DNA from: Escherichia coli
Lineage (GTDB): Bacteria > Pseudomonadota > Gammaproteobacteria > Enterobacterales > Enterobacteriaceae
Length of the DNA: 64,000 nucleotides
Reading direction: 5' to 3' (one strand)
NCBI RefSeq assembly: GCF_048403405.1
Contig: NZ_CP183129.1
Within the stretch, counting starts at the first letter, position 1. The number at the start of each line of letters is the position of its first letter. Below, piece by piece: positions 47,919 to 60,837 of this stretch. The translations under genes were made by a program, and so were the position numbers. The notes beneath the pieces were generated by a model. It saw nothing but the letters and a program-made list of their open reading frames with translations, ran no database searches and was not told the DNA's origin.

Positions 47919-48782
47919 ATGAAACAACACCAATCGGCGGATAATTCTCAGGGCCAGCTTTACATTGTACCGACGCCAATCGGCAATCTGGCGGATATCA
48001 CCCAGCGTGCGTTGGAGGTATTACAGGCCGTTGATCTGATTGCCGCCGAGGATACGCGTCACACCGGTTTATTGCTGCAACATTTTGGGATTAATGCTCG
48101 GTTGTTTGCGCTGCACGACCATAACGAACAACAAAAAGCCGAAACGCTGCTGGCGAAGCTGCAAGAGGGGCAAAACATTGCGCTGGTTTCCGATGCCGGA
48201 ACGCCGCTAATTAACGATCCTGGCTACCATCTGGTGCGTACCTGCCGTGAAGCGGGGATTCGCGTGGTGCCGCTACCCGGGCCGTGTGCTGCTATCACTG
48301 CGTTAAGCGCCGCGGGTTTACCATCCGATCGTTTTTGTTATGAAGGCTTTTTACCTGCCAAATCAAAAGGCCGCCGTGATGCGCTAAAAGCCATTGAAGC
48401 GGAGCCGCGCACGCTGATTTTTTATGAATCTACCCACCGTCTGTTAGATAGCCTGGAAGATATCGTTGCGGTATTAGGCGAATCCCGCTACGTCGTTCTG
48501 GCGCGTGAGCTGACCAAAACCTGGGAAACCATTCACGGCGCGCCCGTTGGCGAGCTGCTGGCGTGGGTCAAAGAAGATGAAAACCGTCGCAAAGGCGAAA
48601 TGGTGCTGATTGTCGAAGGCCATAAAGCGCAGGAAGATGACCTGCCTGCTGATGCCCTGCGCACGCTGGCGCTGCTACAGGCAGAACTGCCGCTGAAAAA
48701 AGCGGCGGCGCTGGCAGCAGAAATTCACGGCGTGAAGAAAAATGCGCTGTATAAGTATGCACTGGAGCAGCAGGGAGAGTGA
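47919..48782 (+). CDS. rsmI: 16S rRNA (C1402) 2'-O-methyltransferase RsmI
   Basis: 287-aa [56 protein letters not shown]... (tetrapyrrole methylase fold). Confidence 0.95.
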
Positions 48783-48831
48783 TTACAGGCGTCGCAGCAG
48801 GAATAGCGTTGCAACGCCTGTAGCAGGCGAG

Positions 48832-49599
48832 TTAACGACGACACATCTCATCAATCATGCATGTGAAATAGTTATGCAGCCATAAAAATGAAGCCGGGAT
48901 AGCGGTAGAGACTTTAGCCGTGAGAAAACGTTCTGTCGCATCCTGCTTTCCTTCGCCAGTCACCAGTAACAAAACTTCGCGGGCATTGAGAATATCCTTC
49001 AGGCCTAAGGTGATCCCACGAGTCACGGGACGGCCCGCGGTTTTTAACATCTCATGTTGCTGTGTTCTGGCATCAAGTTGACTGATATGGCAGGCCGGTT
49101 GCAGGCTTTCTCCCGGTTCGTTCAGCCCAAGATGACCGTTTTTCCCCAACCCGAGAACGCATAAATCCAGACCGCCTTTGCGCGCAATCAGGTGCGTTAC
49201 CCGTTCGCACTCTGTCTCATTTATCTCTTCGGAGCGAAAGCTGATGAGCTGGTCTTCACGCAGCCCCAGCGGCTGCACGATATGCTGTTGCAGGAAAGTT
49301 TCGCAGGTACCAGGCATAGTTAATGGCAGATCCACCCATTCGTCGAGCTTCACGAAGGTGAGCTGGCTGACATCAACCTGCTGCTGGTGGATTTTTTCTA
49401 CCAGATAATGATACGTCAGTAATGGCGTGGCTCCGGTCGCCAGGCAAATCACTGCATCCGGTTTGCTACGGATCATGGCCAATAAATATTCGCTGGCACG
49501 TTCACTTAACGCCATATAGTTTTCAACTTGCTGAAGGGTTTGCACAGGATGAAATTCCTTAAGTAAAGAGGCACCACCAGACGCAGTGCCTCGTTCCAT
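48832..49599 (-). CDS. agaI: Putative galactosamine-6-phosphate deaminase/isomerase AgaI (NagB family)
   Basis: 255-aa ORF with NagB-like fold motifs (ICLATGATP, KLDEWV), last gene of the aga operon. Confidence 0.9.
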   Translation of the reverse strand: MERGTASGGASLLKEFHPVQTLQQVENYMALSERASEYLLAMIRSKPDAVICLATGATPLLTYHYLVEKIHQQQVDVSQLTFVKLDEWVDLPLTMPGTCETFLQQHIVQPLGLREDQLISFRSEEINETECERVTHLIARKGGLDLCVLGLGKNGHLGLNEPGESLQPACHISQLDARTQQHEMLKTAGRPVTRGITLGLKDILNAREVLLLVTGEGKQDATERFLTAKVSTAIPASFLWLHNYFTCMIDEMCRR

Positions 49600-52738: not shown

Positions 52739-53893
52739 TTATGCCTGCCACGGATGAATGATTACGCCTTGCACCACGCGGTTAACGGTGCCGCTGGCTG
52801 ATGGGGTATCCGGCGTATTGCCCATGTGCAGCGATTGCATCAGTGCAAACGTCTGGGCGTACATCAGGAAGCAAAATGCCTGCTCAACGTCGATAAAGTG
52901 ACGGGACGGCGGCAGGATGATATGTGGACCGGCGGTAATAACGTCGTTGCTTTCCGCGGCGATGGCGATTACGCGCATTGCCTGGTTATCGCGGCGGAGT
53001 TCTGCCAGCAGATCAAGATCATACTGACGGGTGTAAGGGTGGCTGGAGACAAAAAACACCACCAGCGTTTCGTCATCGACCAGCGATTTTGGTCCATGAC
53101 GGAATCCGGTCGGGGAATCATAAAAGGCCGCCAGTTTACCCGCCGTCAGTTCCAGCACTTTCAGCGCCGACTCGCGTGCTGCGCCCTGTAAGCCACCGCT
53201 GCCGAGATAAACGATCCGTTTCCACGGTGCGTAACCAAACACACCCTCGCTGAAATCGCCCAGTGAGGTCAGGATCGCCTGGCAACGATCCGCCACGTCG
53301 CGGAAGCTCTGGCTATTGATCGTCTCAGGTGCGAAAACCGCGAGGCAGCTGGCCATCATGGTGGTAATGCTGCTGGTCATCGCAAAGCCGCGATCGTGCG
53401 TTTCTGCGGGCATCAGCAGGGCAAACGCGTTGTCGCTGTTGATCGCGTTTTGGTAAAGAGCGCCCGCTTCGTTGCAGGTGATCGGCAGGTGATAGCATTC
53501 TGGTACAAATTGATTTGCCAGTTCCACGGCGGCGACGCTTTCCGGGCTGTTGCCGGATCGACCGAAGGAGATCAACAGTAGCGGATGAGCTGGATTCAGG
53601 TAGTCCATCGGATTAGTGACCAGATCGGTGGTCGGTACGGCGCTGAAGTTTTTACCGGTATGGCTGGCGAGCCACGGCGCGATGATGTCACCGATAAATG
53701 CCGAGGTTCCGGCTCCGGTCAGGATTACCCGCAGATTCTCTTTGAGCAGTAACGGTTCAAGGAAGTTATTGAGCGCGGAACGTAGCGCGTCGATGTTGGT
53801 GAGTGAACGGATCCATGCGCGAGGCTGATGGCGGATCTCTTCTTCAGTCCATGTACCGGTTGCGGCAGCAGCAGGGGTGTAATTTTCTGGCAT
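52739..53893 (-). CDS. agaS: SIS-domain sugar-phosphate isomerase/deaminase AgaS
   Basis: 384-aa ORF with two SIS domains. Confidence 0.94.
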   Translation of the reverse strand: MPENYTPAAAATGTWTEEEIRHQPRAWIRSLTNIDALRSALNNFLEPLLLKENLRVILTGAGTSAFIGDIIAPWLASHTGKNFSAVPTTDLVTNPMDYLNPAHPLLLISFGRSGNSPESVAAVELANQFVPECYHLPITCNEAGALYQNAINSDNAFALLMPAETHDRGFAMTSSITTMMASCLAVFAPETINSQSFRDVADRCQAILTSLGDFSEGVFGYAPWKRIVYLGSGGLQGAARESALKVLELTAGKLAAFYDSPTGFRHGPKSLVDDETLVVFFVSSHPYTRQYDLDLLAELRRDNQAMRVIAIAAESNDVITAGPHIILPPSRHFIDVEQAFCFLMYAQTFALMQSLHMGNTPDTPSASGTVNRVVQGVIIHPWQA

Positions 53894-53929
53894 AACTCAA
53901 TCCTTAGTCTGATGAACTTGACGTCGGGC

Positions 53930-54060
53930 GTTGTCGCTTTCGCTTACCTTTCGTTTCATTTCACTTGGTGATGTCTTTCGTTGATTAAAATCTATAGAAA
54001 AGAAACTGAAAGTTCAATGGAGAAAAAAGAAATAAAACGAAATTTGTGATCATTGAAAGA
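53930..54060. promoter_or_regulatory. agaS promoter region with CTTTC/GAAAG repeat clusters (candidate AgaR operator)
   Basis: Repeated CTTTCG / TTTCGTTTCATTTC / GAAAG units in AT-rich DNA immediately upstream of agaS (minus strand), resembling the repeat arrays between kbaZ and agaR. Confidence 0.45.
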
Positions 54061-54113
54061 AAAGACAAGGGAAGATTAAAGGATTGCGTAATGACGTCGC
54101 TATGTTCACCGAT

Positions 54114-54170
54114 TGCCGGATGCGGCGTACCGTAGGTCGGATCAGACGCGTTAGCGTCGCATCCGACACC
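54114..54170. repeat. REP-like palindromic element in the agaA-agaS spacer
   Basis: GCCGGATGCGGCGTAC ... GTCGGATCAGACGCGTTAGCGTCGCATCCGAC matches REP-type inverted repeats. Confidence 0.7.
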
Positions 54171-54243
54171 GCTGCACAGATCAAAAAGAAAGAAAAAGAA
54201 AGGCCTTACGGGGGAAGTGAAGGCCCAATAATGGAGCAAACCA

Positions 54244-55377
54244 TCAAATCGAAGCTAATTGACCCTGAATCCAGATTTGTTGCACATGCAGCCCGCTATC
54301 CAGCGCAACGACGCTGGCGCGTTTGCCCGGTTTAAGCGATCCCAGAACACCATCAACACCCAGCATTCGCGCCGGATGCAGCGACGCCATATGGATGGCT
54401 TCCGCAGGCGTTACGCCCGTTAACTCGACCATGTTGCGCACTGCTGCATCGACAGATAGCGTACTGCCCGCCAGCCCACCGGACGCGGTACGGACAACGC
54501 CACCGTGCATCTGCACTTCTTCGCCACATAACGTATAGCGACCATCCGGCATCCCAGCTGCCTGCATCGCGTCGGTGATCAGTACGATTCTCTCTTTCGC
54601 ACAGCAACAACACAGCGACATCGCCGCCGGATGCACATGATGACCATCGGCTATCAGTTCCAGCCAGGCGCGCTTGTCCGTTAATCCCGCGCCAACCATT
54701 CCCGGTTCGCGGTGATGTAAACCTGTCATCCCGTTATAGCAATGCACCAGGCCGTCGGCACCAGCATCAAATGCGGCGCGGGTTTGTTGCCAGGTCGCCG
54801 CGCTATGCCCCAGCATCACCCTTACGTTTTGCTGTTTAAGATGGCGGATGGCCTGCAATGCCCCTTCTTTTTCCGGTGCCAGCGCTACCACGCGCAAGGT
54901 GTGCTGAGAAACGGCAATCAATTGATCCAGCTCGGCAATTTCCAGCTCGCGAAACAGCTCCGGCGGATGCGCGCCTTTATTCTGCGGCGTGAAGTATGGT
55001 CCTTCGAGATAACTCCCCAGCACTTGCGCACCAGGTCCGTCGCGTTGGCAACGTTGAGCAATACGTTTCAGCGCCGCATGAATGGTATTAAGCGGCGCGG
55101 TTACGGTGGTCGGTAACCAACTGCCGACACCTTCGCGTGCTTTGTGCATTGCCAGCTTGTCGAGCACATCCGGCGCGTCATCCATTACATCAACGCCCGC
55201 ACCACCGTGTACATGGGTGTCGATGTAAGCGGGGCAGAGCAGTTCCGCATCGCGTTCAGTCACGCCCACTGGAATCGGTTCGATTGCTGCGATTACACCG
55301 TCAGCAATACGCAACTGATGGTCATCGAGCCATCCCTCTTCAGTCAGCAGCCTTCTGGCGCGCAAAACGGGTGTCAT
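54244..55377 (-). CDS. agaA: N-acetylgalactosamine-6-phosphate deacetylase AgaA (full length)
   Basis: 377 aa from ATG at 55375-55377 (MTPVLRARRLLTEEGWLDDHQLRIADGVIAAIEPIPVGV...), NagA-family amidohydrolase; ATG overlaps the agaF stop (ATGA); N-terminus is intact. Confidence 0.93.
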   Translation of the reverse strand: MTPVLRARRLLTEEGWLDDHQLRIADGVIAAIEPIPVGVTERDAELLCPAYIDTHVHGGAGVDVMDDAPDVLDKLAMHKAREGVGSWLPTTVTAPLNTIHAALKRIAQRCQRDGPGAQVLGSYLEGPYFTPQNKGAHPPELFRELEIAELDQLIAVSQHTLRVVALAPEKEGALQAIRHLKQQNVRVMLGHSAATWQQTRAAFDAGADGLVHCYNGMTGLHHREPGMVGAGLTDKRAWLELIADGHHVHPAAMSLCCCCAKERIVLITDAMQAAGMPDGRYTLCGEEVQMHGGVVRTASGGLAGSTLSVDAAVRNMVELTGVTPAEAIHMASLHPARMLGVDGVLGSLKPGKRASVVALDSGLHVQQIWIQGQLASI

Positions 55378-55808
55378 ATTCCTTCCTCGACCGGACATTC
55401 TTCATGGCAGCGGCCTAACTCGTCCACCAAACTGGTCAGCCCACGGTGTCCACACTCCAGCGCCTGCACACGGAACTCTTCACCGCTTAACCCTTCGCGC
55501 TCCAGCACCATCTCCAGTAGCAGTTGCAAATTGGTGCCGGTGATCACTTCACAGCCCGGTTTTTGCATCGCCAGCGTTGAAGCTACGCGAAACGGCGTGC
55601 CGCCCAGCAAATCTGTCAGAAAAACAATGCCGTCTTCACAATCCAGTTGGGCGAAGGCCTCTTCAAGCTGCGATGTAAGCAGCGCGGTGCTTGAGGTTTC
55701 CGGAAAATCGATGGCGATAAACTGCGATTGCTCGCCGAGGATTTGCTTCATTGCTTTTTCCATGCCGCTGGCAAATCCGCCATGCCCTGTCAAAATAATA
55801 CTTAACAT
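55374..55808 (-). CDS. agaF: PTS N-acetylgalactosamine-specific EIIA component AgaF
   Basis: 144-aa ORF MLSIILTGHGGFASGMEKAMKQILGEQSQFIAIDFPE..., mannose-family IIA. Confidence 0.93.
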   Translation of the reverse strand: MLSIILTGHGGFASGMEKAMKQILGEQSQFIAIDFPETSSTALLTSQLEEAFAQLDCEDGIVFLTDLLGGTPFRVASTLAMQKPGCEVITGTNLQLLLEMVLEREGLSGEEFRVQALECGHRGLTSLVDELGRCHEECPVEEGI

Positions 55809-55825
55809 CTAATACCTCATTGTAT

Positions 55826-56704
55826 TTAAAGGAAATGACAGAATTTACCGACGATACCGAGAACCACGGTAACTGCAATCAGGCGCAGCGGACTCCAGCC
55901 GCGGCGTACCAGCCAGAACATGGTCAGGGTGTAGACCAGCGGTAAGAAGGCAGGCATCAGTTTGTCGATAACATCAGCCTGTAACTTAACCACTGCATCG
56001 CCAGCGGTGATTTCCAGCGTGGTGCTTAAACGAACATAGGTTGCTACCAGCGCGCCGATTACCGTCATCCCAACGATTGACGCAGCATGGCCGACTTTTT
56101 TGGTATTCGCTTTAATGAGTGGAATCGCCGCCACGCCCATGCGGTAAGCATAATGCGCCAGACCAAAACGCAGCCCCAGGTGTACCACGTTAAACAGCAC
56201 AATAAAGACGACTGCGCCAAGAATGGAGCCTTGCAATGCCAGACTGGCTCCAATCCCGCCACAAATCGGCAGTAGCGTTAGCCAGAACATTGCATCGCCA
56301 ATCCCGCCAAGCGGCGCACCGACGGCAATTTTGGTGCTCTGAATACTGTTAACGTCCTGCTTAGAACGCTCCATCGCAAGGATAATGCCGATAACAAACG
56401 TCACCAGAAACGGATGGGTATTGAAGAAACCCATATGCCCTTTCATGGCGCGCGCCAGGTCGCGTTTATTAGTGTGGATCTTTTTCAGAGCAGGCAGCAG
56501 ACCGTACAACCAGCCAGAAGCCTGCATACGTTCGTAGTTAAAAGACGCTTGTAACAGCATGGAACGCCAGGCGACGCGGTTGATATCTTTTTTTGTCAGC
56601 TCCGCGCCAATACTCTGATCTTCATACACGTTTTCATTGACGCCTGTCAGCAGTGTTTCTTCGTTTTCACTGACGTTCGGCAGGGTGGTTTGATTAGATG
56701 CCAT
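55826..56704 (-). CDS. agaE: PTS N-acetylgalactosamine-specific EIID component AgaE
   Basis: 292 aa from ATG at 56702-56704 (MASNQTTLPNVSENEETLLTG...), mannose-family IID paralogous to AgaD; overlaps the agaW 3' end by 11 nt; the ORF-track start at 56710 is a TTG two codons upstream. Confidence 0.9.
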   Translation of the reverse strand: MASNQTTLPNVSENEETLLTGVNENVYEDQSIGAELTKKDINRVAWRSMLLQASFNYERMQASGWLYGLLPALKKIHTNKRDLARAMKGHMGFFNTHPFLVTFVIGIILAMERSKQDVNSIQSTKIAVGAPLGGIGDAMFWLTLLPICGGIGASLALQGSILGAVVFIVLFNVVHLGLRFGLAHYAYRMGVAAIPLIKANTKKVGHAASIVGMTVIGALVATYVRLSTTLEITAGDAVVKLQADVIDKLMPAFLPLVYTLTMFWLVRRGWSPLRLIAVTVVLGIVGKFCHFL

Positions 56705-57473
56705 CTTCAAATTCCTCTTTCTGTGCCGCAGGTTGAGTCGGTTCAGGAGATTTACGCAGCAGGTCGATCAGCGCCATCGCCAGCGCGGCGGCAGCAATAG
56801 CCAGCACCGGTAACTTGAGCCAGGCTGCGGCAACAAAGCCCAGGATGAAGTAGGGGATGTAGACGTTTTTCATCATGATTTTCAGCAGCACGGCAAAACC
56901 GATTGCTGGCATGATGCCGCCCGCGACGCCGAGGCCGTCGATTAATCGTTGCGGCAGGACATCAATGATGGTTTTGGCATGTTCTGCGCCGAAGTAGATA
57001 GGCAGGAAAGCGCAGAGAAAATAGAAAGTGCCGAGTGCCAGCAGTGCCAGATAGTTCACGCGTTCAATGCCGCGAGTATCGGCGTTCTCTGCCATCCGGT
57101 CACAGCGGGACATTACGCCAGACATCACCGAGAACAGGAAGGTAATCCCCATCTGTACTGCGACAGCGAAAGGTACGGCGACACCGACCGCGACATCGGG
57201 TTTCACGCCGGTAGTAATGGCAAACGCCGTGCCGACGATAGTACCGATAATCACGTTAGGCGGCTGTGCACCCGCCAGCGGGGCCAGCCCCATCCACACC
57301 AGTTCCAGCGTACCGCCGGTTAAAATACCGGTATGCAGATCGCCAAGTACCAGCCCGACCAACGGGCCGAGGACCACCGGGCGGTGCATATGGGTTAGGC
57401 CGTTAAACATATCCAGGCCAGCGATAAAGGCGATAATGCCCAACGCGAATGCCTGCAACAGACTGATTTCCAT
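56694..57473 (-). CDS. agaW: PTS N-acetylgalactosamine-specific EIIC component AgaW (full length)
   Basis: 259-aa polytopic ORF MEISLLQAFALGIIAFIAGLDMFNGLTHMHRPVVLGPLVG..., intact C-terminus ending EEFEDGI. Confidence 0.93.
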   Translation of the reverse strand: MEISLLQAFALGIIAFIAGLDMFNGLTHMHRPVVLGPLVGLVLGDLHTGILTGGTLELVWMGLAPLAGAQPPNVIIGTIVGTAFAITTGVKPDVAVGVAVPFAVAVQMGITFLFSVMSGVMSRCDRMAENADTRGIERVNYLALLALGTFYFLCAFLPIYFGAEHAKTIIDVLPQRLIDGLGVAGGIMPAIGFAVLLKIMMKNVYIPYFILGFVAAAWLKLPVLAIAAAALAMALIDLLRKSPEPTQPAAQKEEFEDGI

Positions 57474-57483
57474 GATGAATCCC

Positions 57484-57957
57484 TCAAAGTAATTTAAAGA
57501 GGTCCACAGCAGGCTCTGTCGGGACGCCCTGAACGAAGCATTCCACCCCAGCGGCTTTCAGGTCGTTAAATGCTGCGATATCGCCCGCATCTACAGAAAC
57601 CGTTTTGGCGATTTGTTGCTTGCCATTGGCGTAGTGCATATTGCCAACGTTAATGCGATTCACCGGAACGCCACCTTTCACCAGCGTCAGGAAATCGGCA
57701 GGTGTTTTACAAACCAGCAGGATTTTCTGTCGATCGGCGGCGCGATGAATGTTGTCGATGACTTTTTGCAGCGTCCAGAAACGTACGGCGATCCCTTCTG
57801 CCAGTACCATTTCCATCAGGTTTTGTTGTACCGGATCTTCGGCAACCTCATCGTTGGCTACCAGCACCAGATTTGCCCCCGCAAATCCGACCCACTGAAC
57901 GCCGACCTGACCGTGAATCAAGCGTTCATCAATCCGGCTTAAAACAATATTTGGCAT
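57484..57957 (-). CDS. agaV: PTS N-acetylgalactosamine-specific EIIB component AgaV
   Basis: 157 aa from ATG at 57955-57957 (MPNIVLSRIDERLIHGQVGVQWVGFAGANLVLV...); ORF-track start 57993 is an upstream extension. Confidence 0.93.
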   Translation of the reverse strand: MPNIVLSRIDERLIHGQVGVQWVGFAGANLVLVANDEVAEDPVQQNLMEMVLAEGIAVRFWTLQKVIDNIHRAADRQKILLVCKTPADFLTLVKGGVPVNRINVGNMHYANGKQQIAKTVSVDAGDIAAFNDLKAAGVECFVQGVPTEPAVDLFKLL

Positions 57958-57979
57958 AGCGTGTTCCTCTTTGTTTTGC

Positions 57980-59260
57980 TTATTGGCCTTCACAGGCTGT
58001 GTGGTACTGCGCCAGGATGTCCTGAATATGGTTGATAATGAGTTCCCGTGGCGTTGGCTGCAGCTCGCCGGAGCGAACTTTCACGTATTGCAGCGGCAAA
58101 TACTGGCTGATGAGCGGTAGCGGAATTGGTGAATCCGCCAGATTACGAACCAGATGAGCGAAAGCGTCATCAATCTGGCTGTCCGGCCAGTAATAGCGCA
58201 CGCGATCCGAGTAGCTATAACCACGTGCCAGACGACGCGCGTTGCCGTCACCGTGGTAGTGGCTTTGCCAGTATTCCGGGCGGTCGAGCATCACGTTTTC
58301 CAGTACCTGACGCAGACCGGAACAGGCTTTCGCTGGCACCAGTTCTTCTTCAATCGCCGCCAGAGAGAACAGAGCTTCACGCAGGGCGAAGGTCAGCGCC
58401 GGGCCAACTTTCAGAATGGCAAAGTGGTCAATCACCAGCTGGCGCAGCGATTGCGGCGTTTGATAATCGGTAGAGTGCGCTTCGAAAATCAGCGTTTCGT
58501 AGTTTTCGACCATCTGGCTTAAGGCGGTCGCTTTAGCTGGCTGATAATCAATAACGTTGGTGTGATCGAATTCGACGCCGGGTTGTACCACCAGAGCAAT
58601 GATGCGTGGCCAGATGGCACTCAGACCTTGCTTTTCAAAGGCGTGACGATGGGCTTCCAGCGTGGCGCGGGCGGCATCTGGCGTGGTGACCGCCAGCTCG
58701 CTTAAGGTTTCATGCGCGCCGCCAGGTACCGGCACTTCGGTACCAATGACATACTCCAAATCGGCTTCGCCAAAGTGTTCACGACAGGTTTCTTCCGCCA
58801 CTTTCGCCAGACGTGCGGCGCGTTCAGCCACGATGTCATCAGTTAAGGGAATTGGATCGTCCTGACAGGACATGCTGCAATCAAGGTGAATTTTTTTGAA
58901 TCCTGCCGCCACGTAGCTTTTAATCAAATCATCGGCATTGGCCATTGCCTGAGCGGCTGGCAGGTTTTGCCAGCGGTTTGGCCCCAGATGGTCGCCTCCC
59001 AAAATCAACGCATCCTGTGGGAAATTCAACGAGTCGGCGAGCTGACAAACAAAGCCGCGAAAATCGGCGGGCGTCATTCCGGTATAACCGCCGAACTGGT
59101 CCACCTGATTGGAGGTTGCTTCAATCAGTAACGGCGTTTGGTTTGCACTGGCGTAGCGGATTGCAGCTTCCAGCACCAGCGGATGTGCGGAACAAACGGC
59201 ATAAATCCCATTTGTTTTACCCTCTTTGTGCTGTCTCACCATTTCTGTCAGATGTTTCAC
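57980..59260 (-). CDS. kbaZ: Tagatose-bisphosphate aldolase non-catalytic subunit KbaZ
   Basis: 426-aa [40 protein letters not shown]..., apparent GTG start. Confidence 0.94.
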
Positions 59261-59280
59261 TTTCCTCTCCAGTTCAGATT

Positions 59281-59500
59281 ACTGCGATATTAATCTTTCG
59301 TTTTGTTTCAGTTGATACTGCGCCATGGTGAGATAAAAATAAAACGAAAGATAATGGTTTTCTGATCTGATTCACAAAAGAAACATAATGAAAGCCACTG
59401 AAACGAGAGTAGCTTGCGCCAATGGGTAAGGTGGGCTTGCATTTGCTTAATAGAAAGGCGTTAATAGGCAAAACGAAATGAAACGAAAGTTTTACGAAAG
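59281..59500. promoter_or_regulatory. Divergent kbaZ/agaR promoter region with multiple CTTTC/GAAAG repeats (candidate AgaR operators)
   Basis: AATCTTTCGTTTTGTTTCAG (59293-59312), AAAACGAAAG (59341-59350), AAACGAGAG (59401-59409) and AAACGAAATGAAACGAAAGTTTTACGAAAGG (59471-59500) in AT-rich DNA between divergent kbaZ and agaR. Confidence 0.55.
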
Positions 59501-59508
59501 GACTTACT

Positions 59509-60318
59509 ATGAGTAATACCGACGCTTCAGGTGAGAAGCGAATGACAGGCACCAGCGAGCGACGAGAACAGATCATTCAGCGTCTGCGACAGCAAGGGAG
59601 TGTGCAGGTTAACGATCTGTCGGCATTGTATGGCGTATCTACTGTGACGATCCGCAACGATCTGGCGTTTCTGGAAAAGCAGGGGATCGCTGTGCGTGCC
59701 TATGGCGGCGCGTTGATCTGCGATAGCACGACGCCGTCAGTCGAGCCATCAGTGGAAGATAAAAGCGCGCTGAACACCGCAATGAAACGCAGCGTTGCGA
59801 AAGCTGCCGTTGAGTTGATTCAGCCAGGTCATCGGGTAATCCTCGATTCCGGGACCACCACTTTTGAGATTGCTCGTCTGATGCGCAAGCACACTGACGT
59901 AATTGCGATGACCAACGGTATGAACGTGGCTAATGCGTTGCTGGAAGCGGAAGGCGTTGAGCTGCTGATGACCGGCGGGCATTTGCGCCGTCAGTCGCAA
60001 TCTTTTTACGGCGATCAGGCTGAGCAATCGCTGCAAAATTACCACTTCGATATGCTGTTTCTTGGTGTAGATGCGATCGATCTGGAGCGCGGCGTCAGCA
60101 CACATAATGAAGATGAAGCTCGTTTAAACCGCCGGATGTGCGAAGTTGCGGAACGGATCATCGTGGTCACCGATTCCAGTAAGTTCAATCGTTCCAGTTT
60201 ACATAAGATCATTGATACTCAACGTATCGACATGATCATTGTTGATGAAGGCATTCCTGCGGATAGTCTGGAAGGGCTGCGAAAGGCTGGGGTTGAAGTG
60301 ATTCTGGTCGGGGAGTGA
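59509..60318 (+). CDS. agaR: DeoR-family transcriptional repressor AgaR
   Basis: 269-aa ORF with N-terminal HTH ([42 protein letters not shown]) and DeoR C-terminal sugar-phosphate sensor domain. Confidence 0.95.
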
Positions 60319-60372
60319 GAAAGGGTGCCCGCTGGTCAACACGAATGCGTTCGGCGGGCATTGTGAACACCA

Positions 60373-60837
60373 TCAATGGGTTTCTTCTGTCTCTCGGGTG
60401 AGGGTTTCCCAGTCGGCAGGAGGATGTCCTCTTTTTAACATTTTGCTGAATACGGTATAGGCATCTGTTTTTTTACCGTAGGTGCGCAGAGTGTTTTCAT
60501 CGTTCATCCATCCCAGAATGATGACTTTCTCTTTTTCACTATAACGAAAGAAGAGACGATAACGACCAGCACCAAATTTTACCCGTGACCAGTCTTTATT
60601 TTTCCCAGAGCCTAACGACTTGCCATGACGGAATGCCGGTGATGATGGATTGACCGTGATATGCTCCTCAATCACTTTATGGACTACCGCCAATAACTTT
60701 GTGGCGGCTTTTCTCTGATAATTTTCAGGATCTTTTCCCTTTAATGTCTCGACTTCGGCAACTAAAGCGTCGTAGGTTTCCTGAAAACAGGGATGAGCAT
60801 ATAGCGCCCAACCATTAACCCTTTGTGGAAAATCCAT
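60373..60837 (-). CDS. yhaV: Type II toxin YhaV (ribosome-dependent mRNA interferase)
   Basis: 154-aa ORF MDFPQRVNGWALYAHPCFQETYDALVAEVETLKGKDPENYQRKAATKLL...; ATG overlaps the prlF stop (TAATG). Confidence 0.93.
   Translation of the reverse strand: MDFPQRVNGWALYAHPCFQETYDALVAEVETLKGKDPENYQRKAATKLLAVVHKVIEEHITVNPSSPAFRHGKSLGSGKNKDWSRVKFGAGRYRLFFRYSEKEKVIILGWMNDENTLRTYGKKTDAYTVFSKMLKRGHPPADWETLTRETEETH

Follow-up and report, generated by a model that had tools for sequence, protein, structure and literature searches.

The DeoR and GlpR repressors of Escherichia coli act at palindromic operators of ~16-20 bp. There are several operators per promoter, repression is exerted by oligomers of the protein, release is brought about by a sugar-phosphate, and there is a partnership with CRP. 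AgaR is a repressor of the DeoR family for which a 24-nt consensus, WRMMTTTCRTTTYRTTTYNYTTKK, was reportedly described by Ray and Larson in 2004. AgaR represses and binds the aga promoters (PMC3668189, PMC5018945), and the regulon becomes constitutive in agaR deletion strains (PMC3668189). The physiological ligand of AgaR remains unclear (PMC4694137). Table S3 of PMC8667592 gives an experimentally used AgaR site 'from PkbaZ', CTTTCGTTTCATTTTCGTTT, and PMC3668189 and PMC9628945 cite, for E. coli K-12, operators at three promoters, those of agaR, agaZ (kbaZ) and agaS.

We have analyzed repeats of the CTTTC/GAAAG type in a window of 64,000 nucleotides of E. coli DNA. AgaR, whose gene is adjacent to these repeats, is a DeoR-family repressor, and the repeats are very probably its operators. 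Each is an array of ~20 bp containing three to four tandem 5-bp units, with the consensus ATCTTTCGTTTYRTTTC. They lie in the same locus and at the same promoters as the K-12 operators, in so far as the citing passages of the two papers describe these. In having several operators per promoter the aga system is like DeoR and GlpR, and the oligomeric repressor, the release by a sugar-phosphate and the partnership with CRP are shared features that we propose for AgaR below. The aga sites differ in being direct tandem arrays of 5-bp units; such symmetry as there is relates one whole array to another, at a distance of 55 or 95 bp.

The aga locus and the abundance of its repeats

The region from 53700 to 60400 is 100% identical to several human isolates of E. 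coli, and ~4,930 of 5,426 complete E. coli genomes have it over most of its length. The window holds the E. coli aga/gam cluster, and the cluster is intact. In the annotation of an identical strain the genes of the minus strand are ordered agaI, agaD, agaC, agaB, kbaY, agaS, agaA, agaF, agaE, agaW, agaV and kbaZ. Here agaS (52739-53893, minus strand) is the first gene of agaS-kbaY-agaBCDI, and kbaZ (also agaZ; 57980-59260, minus strand) is the first gene of kbaZ-agaVWEFA. The agaA gene, labelled nagA in the annotation, occupies the minus strand from 54244. Divergent from kbaZ is agaR (59509-60318, plus strand), assigned to the DeoR-family repressors from the annotation and from the domains of its product (HTH_DeoR, E = 1.9e-21; DeoRC, E = 3.3e-55). 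The gene identities presumed in a preliminary description of this DNA agree with the annotation of the identical strain, and the gene order means that 59261-59508 (the kbaZ-agaR spacer, 248 bp, 37% GC) and 53894-54243 (upstream of agaS, 43% GC) are correctly named as non-coding control regions. Next to agaI (47919-49599) come rsmI and lpoA, with nothing between; in K-12 the yraHIJK fimbrial operon separates agaI from these two genes, but it is missing in the present strain, and the K-12 alignment ends ~30 bp short of the end of K-12 agaI.

Within the kbaZ-agaR spacer CTTTC is found at 59295, and GAAAG at 59346, 59390, 59453, 59485 and 59496; exact CTTTCG/CGAAAG hexamers occur at 59295, 59345, 59484 and 59495. 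The region upstream of agaS (53894-54243) has CTTTC(G) at 53937, 53948 and 53975, and GAAAG at 54008, 54055, 54188 and 54198. Direct listing of the motif thus recovers the clusters of CGAAAG/CTTTCG that had been described in the kbaZ-agaR region, save that at 59401-59409, which reads GAAACGAGA and contains no CGAAAG unit. The similar units described upstream of agaS are also present. The range then given for them, 53930-54060, omits the GAAAG units at 54188 and 54198, which lie in the T-run of the agaA terminator.

Expected numbers were taken from 5000 dinucleotide-preserving shuffles of each region. The kbaZ-agaR spacer has six CTTTC/GAAAG pentamers compared with a shuffle mean of 1.01 (z 5.2, P = 0.0004), four CTTTCG/CGAAAG hexamers compared with 0.20 (P < 0.0002), and seven occurrences of TTTCRT/AYGAAA compared with 0.74 (P < 0.0002). 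Upstream of agaS there are seven pentamers where the shuffles give a mean of 1.69 (P = 0.0006), and five where they give 0.78 in the range 53930-54060 (P = 0.0008). When all 250-bp windows of the 64 kb are ranked, the kbaZ-agaR spacer comes first for all three patterns and the agaS region is second or tied second. The comparison with shuffled sequence that the preliminary description had proposed therefore places the density above expectation for AT-rich DNA in both control regions, and the shuffle excess together with the top rank means that the excess is no by-product of AT-richness.

Arrays around the aga promoters

The recognition unit is a tandem-pentamer array of ~20 bp starting CTTTCG, and not the scattered pentamer. 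In the reading direction of kbaZ, array A is CTTTC-GTAAAA-CTTTC-GTTTC-ATTTC-GTTTT, array B is CTTTC-ATTAT-GTTTC and array C is CTTTC-GTTTT-ATTTT, while array D is inverted, reading GAAAC-AAAAC-GAAAG. The units within each site are direct tandem repeats, and inverted symmetry is found only between separate arrays; a palindromic operator of the DeoR/GlpR type, with an inverted repeat of 16-20 bp at each site, was not found at the aga arrays. A repeat finder independently identified D and C as an inverted pair (16 nt, 94% complementary, 28-nt gap), S3 and S1 upstream of agaS as another (14 nt, 93% complementary, 66-nt gap), and arrays A and C as direct repeats with a spacing of 139 bp.

The 24-nt consensus WRMMTTTCRTTTYRTTTYNYTTKK is matched with 0 mismatches only at 59469-59492 (array A) and 53945-53968 (S3). 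With up to 3 mismatches allowed, six of its seven matches lie in the two control regions, compared with 0.16 expected, a test that is partly circular because the consensus was derived from the same aga sites that are being matched. The seventh match (2950-2973, 3 mismatches; ATGCAAACGAAAAAAAATGAAATTTGG) lies over the start codon of mlaD (MQTKKNEIW), and is most likely a chance product of the lysine-rich N-terminus.

Arrays A, C, D, S1 and S3 served as the training set for a position matrix, with a threshold of at least 17 bits for a hit. In 1.24 Mb of orthologous loci 507 matches score at least 17 bits, and 503 of these fall in the two control regions, defined for this count as 260 bp upstream of agaR and 420 bp upstream of agaS. 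The trained arrays score 29-31 bits. Since A, C, D, S1 and S3 are in the training set their own matches are by construction, and the independent results of the matrix are only those for B, S2 and S0 together with the near-absence of matches elsewhere.

We collected orthologous loci by a scan with the AgaR protein, taking one genome per species. This gave 80 loci from more than 20 enterobacterial genera with an AgaR identity of 81-98%, including Escherichia, Klebsiella, Kluyvera, Raoultella, Citrobacter, Enterobacter, Salmonella, Lelliottia, Yersinia, Buttiauxella, Serratia, Kosakonia, Pantoea, Mixta, Cedecea and Ewingella, and from them we aligned 73 distinct kbaZ-agaR spacers and 58 distinct agaS upstream regions. 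kbaZ is divergent from agaR in every one of the 80 loci, and 72 of 74 spacers between the two genes have a length of 245-251 bp. Across the 80 loci the arrays are ~98% conserved at fixed positions. The conserved blocks of the 73 spacers are D, TTnATACTG, C, a CRP-like site, B, GGGCTTGCAT, GAAAGGCGTTAATAG and A. In the kbaZ-agaR region the conserved set comprises arrays A to D together with a single unit within the promoter spacer of agaR; upstream of agaS it comprises S1, S2 and S3. Five of the six exact pentamers of the kbaZ-agaR spacer are 98-99% conserved and that at 59496 is 51% conserved. GAAAC at 59400 is conserved at 23%, and it is because of this cross-genus identity of only 0.23 that 59401-59409 is rejected as an operator unit. 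The alignments reproduce the AgaR regulon motif of Proteobacteria (Leyn et al. 2012), in the form in which it is summarised in PMC5018945 and PMC4694137.

Array A (59470-59491; AACTTTCGTTTCATTTCGTTTT on the minus strand) is a stronger operator match than any other array, with the top score of 31.1 bits and 0 mismatches to the 24-nt consensus, and it is at least 90% conserved across the 73 distinct orthologous spacers. The predicted agaR promoter (59437-59465, plus strand) consists of a -35 TTGCAT (59437-59442), a 17-bp spacer and a -10 GTTAAT (59460-59465), both hexamers being conserved. Array A begins 5 bp past this -10, so that the predicted agaR start is covered by it, and array A keeps a constant distance of 52 bp from the -35 in 71 of 73 spacers. 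Inside the predicted promoter spacer there is a single GAAAG unit (59453-59457; GCCTTTCTTTT on the minus strand) with a mean identity of 0.98. An extra CGAAAG unit (59495-59500, minus strand), an exact hexamer, adjoins the start codon of agaR. Its conservation is only partial, with a mean cross-genus identity of 0.51, and in other genera CCTTTnnT is found.

Array B (59375-59396, minus strand; GGCTTTCATTATGTTTCTTTTG) has its units 10 bp apart, and the element CTTTCATTATGTTTCTTTTGTGA is nearly invariant. There are 2 mismatches to the 24-nt consensus, and the array scores 18.8 bits though it is outside the training set of the matrix. It abuts a putative CRP site (59361-59376; TCTGATCTGATTCACA) that is conserved and has 1 mismatch to TGTGA-N6-TCACA, and that lies ~61-63 bp upstream of the kbaZ start as predicted; at a class I CRP-dependent promoter the site would be ~61 bp upstream. 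Over the window as a whole the CRP pattern shows no enrichment (25 matches compared with 27 expected); the assignment rests on the position of the site, its conservation and the literature, kbaZ being a CRP target in a genomic SELEX listing (PMC3105977).

Array C (59331-59352, minus strand; ATCTTTCGTTTTATTTTTATCT; 28.8 bits) is conserved and overlaps the predicted kbaZ -35 region. The predicted kbaZ -10, TATCAA on the minus strand (59312-59317), lies between C and D, and is conserved as TTnATACTG. Array D (59293-59314, plus strand; ATCTTTCGTTTTGTTTCAGTTG; 29.6 bits) has 3 mismatches to the 24-nt consensus and is at least 90% conserved. Its orientation is opposite to that of A, B and C, and it lies over the kbaZ start as predicted and the beginning of the transcribed region. 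D and C are spaced by 55 bp in 66 of 73 spacers, and C and B by 44 bp in all 73. A variable linker of 37 bp (59396-59432), which includes 59401-59409, joins the promoter modules of kbaZ and agaR. Its mean pairwise identity is 0.33, and B lies 43-46 bp from the agaR -35 in 69 of 73 spacers. The length of the linker is held within a few bp over more than 20 genera, which suggests that the distance from one module to the other is of importance.

Upstream of agaS, array S1 (54024-54045, minus strand; AAATTTCGTTTTATTTCTTTTT; 29.5 bits) is conserved, with 1 mismatch to the 24-nt consensus, and lies between a CRP half-site and the predicted -35. The predicted agaS promoter (53989-54017, minus strand) has a -35 TTGAAC (54012-54017), a 17-bp spacer and a -10 TAGATT (53989-53994), and the hexamers are conserved. 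S2 (53997-54012, minus strand; CTTTCAGTTTCTTTTC) lies in the spacer between these hexamers. It is irregular and is conserved as CTTTCGATTTCTTTTC; outside the training set, it scores 11.6 bits in the E. coli window and 15-21 bits in other genera. S3 (53946-53967, plus strand; ACCTTTCGTTTCATTTCACTTG; 30.4 bits) is downstream of the predicted agaS start, and is conserved, with 0 mismatches to the 24-nt consensus. The candidate CRP site (54045-54060) was identified from the conservation of TTGTGATC, in which only the TGTGATC half is conserved, and it is not among the matches to the CRP pattern at up to 2 mismatches. Among the 58 distinct agaS upstream regions the CTTTCG at 53937 and 53975 is not conserved (identity 0.28 and 0.29), and GAAAG at 54055 is conserved only in part (identity 0.49). 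A REP/BIME-like palindromic element with inverted repeats (54100-54175) lies between the agaA terminator and the agaS promoter, and is not part of the operator set. It explains the distance from S0, in the terminator, to agaS, which is ~304-311 bp in Escherichia and ~200-257 bp in other genera.

Consensus scans for promoters and terminators found none upstream of agaS, and in the kbaZ-agaR region they gave two promoter-like sites on the plus strand and one weak terminator-like site. The promoter scan called no minus-strand promoter, and the predicted promoters of agaR, kbaZ and agaS all went uncalled; the three promoter assignments are therefore deduced from the conserved hexamers, and the predicted starts fall at ~59472 (agaR), ~59305 (kbaZ) and ~53982 (agaS).

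The published site CTTTCGTTTCATTTTCGTTT (PMC8667592) corresponds to array A at 59470-59489 save for one extra T, the genome reading CTTTCGTTTCATTTCGTTTT in K-12 and the window alike. A misprint could account for the extra T, or the printed site could be a variant made by engineering. The repeats are thus the published AgaR sites at the three aga promoters, and the interpretation given in the preliminary description, that AgaR recognizes repeated CTTTC units at several operators, is therefore right and already known. Its core is borne out by the HTH_DeoR and DeoRC domains, the published site and the ~98% conserved arrays, and its list of sites needs revision. The positions 59401-59409, 53937 and 53975 are not conserved, 59495 and 54055 are conserved only in part, and the conserved arrays B (59375-59396) and S1 (54024-54045) were left out, S1 having been overlooked because it has no exact CTTTC.

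It had further been suggested that the full set of operators could be read here because a segment deleted in K-12 is intact. The K-12 alignment runs to 57098 and resumes at 54802, defining a deletion of 2.3 kb (~54803-57097, inside agaW to agaA) whose size agrees with PMC3668189. The alignment blocks overlap by ~10 bp at the junction (54797-54807 and 57093-57103), which fits a short repeat at the site of recombination between agaW and agaA. Unlike K-12, the window has intact structural genes from one control region to the other. Nothing in the deleted segment scores above 8.6 bits with the matrix, compared with 29-31 bits for the trained arrays, and on this basis we reject the idea of operators hidden there. 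K-12 keeps both control regions. The kbaZ-agaR spacers are identical at 244 of 248 positions, with none of the four differences in a pentamer, and every array upstream of agaS is kept. There, position 53942 is G in the window and A in K-12 (CTTTCG compared with CTTTCA), S0 at 54187 reads CTTTCTTTTT in the window and CTTTCGTTTT in K-12, and the main block of difference is the REP block at 54100-54175. Since K-12 retains both control regions and the deletion contains no operator-like element, the intact cluster adds no operator that is missing from K-12.

A conserved tract at the agaA terminator

The kbaZ-agaVWEFA operon ends in a predicted intrinsic terminator hairpin (54201-54226, minus strand) after the agaA stop codon. 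Across genera its stem varies as GGCCTTCG/CGTAAGGCC, GGTCTGTGG/CACAGACC and GGTTTGTGG/CACAAACC, and from these compensatory changes we conclude that the terminator is real. The fold energy of the 74-nt terminator stretch is unremarkable (z = -0.6), and it is on covariation that the call rests. A simple terminator scan missed 54183-54226, where the loop of 7 nt is within the 3-8 limit of the scan; the likely cause is an unpaired base that interrupts the stem. In genera other than Escherichia a B-like element, CTTTCATTnTGnnTC, is found just before the agaA terminator hairpin.

The T-run of this terminator contains the tract S0 (54183-54204, minus strand; GCCTTTCTTTTTCTTTCTTTTT), with GAAAG units at 54188 and 54198. 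The pattern CCTTTCTTTTYCTTTC (CTTTC-TTTTY-CTTTC) is found in 52 of the 54 loci in which agaA precedes agaS. The chance that this tract is nothing more than the U-run of the terminator, with no AgaR site, we put at about even. S0 directly follows the hairpin with the covarying stem, its score of 21.2 bits (14-20 in other genera) is well under the 29-31 bits of the trained arrays, and at its unit starts the G/R letters are replaced by T/C. Against this, C6, C12 and C16 of the tract are kept in 43-50 of the 52 loci while the stem and flanks diverge, the repeat finder identified S0 as an 89% direct repeat of S1, and array B is conserved yet scores lower than S0. A U-run needs no fixed C residues, and so a second role of S0 as a distal AgaR site is plausible. 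We suggest tentatively, and with some doubt, that the set of AgaR operators is larger than the promoter-proximal arrays, S0 being a candidate distal array at the junction of the two aga operons.

Other readings of the repeats and a model of repression

Could the arrays serve some other function? The phased T/A tracts might act mainly as curved DNA, or as sites for nucleoid proteins of the H-NS/SlyA type that silence the cluster, and not as specific operators. The units do recur at spacings of 5 and 10 bp, and raised SlyA increases the agaS-kbaY-agaBCDI transcripts 2.5-fold in K-12, SlyA being a protein that activates other operons by countering H-NS (PMC5797941). Yet curvature would not need the invariant C/G at the unit boundaries (CTTTCG), which is 98-99% conserved. 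A 20-bp word is repeated in both orientations around the promoters, and published work gives these promoters to AgaR. Repression lost on deletion of agaR while hns is intact would refute the silencing reading, and the regulon is indeed reported to be constitutive in agaR deletion strains (PMC3668189). We consider it very improbable as the main function of the repeats; a nucleoid-protein or curvature role may coexist as a secondary layer.

Even less probable is that arrays D and S3 are RNA elements in the leaders of kbaZ and agaS. If the predicted starts are right both would be transcribed, reading GAAACAAAACGAAAG and GAAAUGAAACGAAAG. These starts are themselves only predicted, however, no Rfam family reaches its gathering score in 53700-59700, and A, B, C and S1 carry the same word upstream of promoters in the opposite orientation, which fits recognition of double-stranded DNA.

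The least credible reading, that of chance low-complexity sequence in AT-rich intergenic DNA with no specific function, has in its favor the base composition of both control regions and the poor conservation of the pentamers at 53937, 53975, 54055 and 59496 and of GAAAC at 59400, and is refuted by the 4- to 20-fold excess over dinucleotide shuffles, by the first rank of the kbaZ-agaR spacer among all windows, by the specificity of a motif nearly missing from the other 1.2 Mb scanned, and by the 96-99% conservation of 7 of the 11 exact pentamers scored in both control regions beside a linker at 33% identity.

We return to the repeats as AgaR operators. The inverted pairs of arrays flank the predicted core promoters, with C and D at kbaZ and S1 and S3 at agaS. 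On this basis we propose that oligomers of AgaR would sit on the arrays to either side of each catabolic promoter, as well as over the start of agaR, blocking RNA polymerase and making agaR autoregulated. The arrays would cooperate, possibly via looping, as the fixed spacings suggest. If AgaR follows the pattern of its family, the DeoRC domain could bind a sugar-phosphate from the GalNAc/GalN pathway and the repressor be released, after which CRP at 59361-59376 would activate kbaZ.

The analysis confirms that a reading from the sequence alone recovered the operators of a characterized repressor, which in itself matters little beyond annotation. It provides a cleaner map of the conserved units, their orientation and their fixed spacing at the three promoters, and this could guide the engineering of aga promoters or of AgaR circuits. 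A detail that is possibly new is the CTTTC-TTTTY-CTTTC tract, deeply conserved within the T-run that follows the agaA hairpin. If S0 is a distal AgaR site, it might aid the repression of agaS by looping to S1-S3, or it might couple the occupancy of the repressor to termination and read-through.
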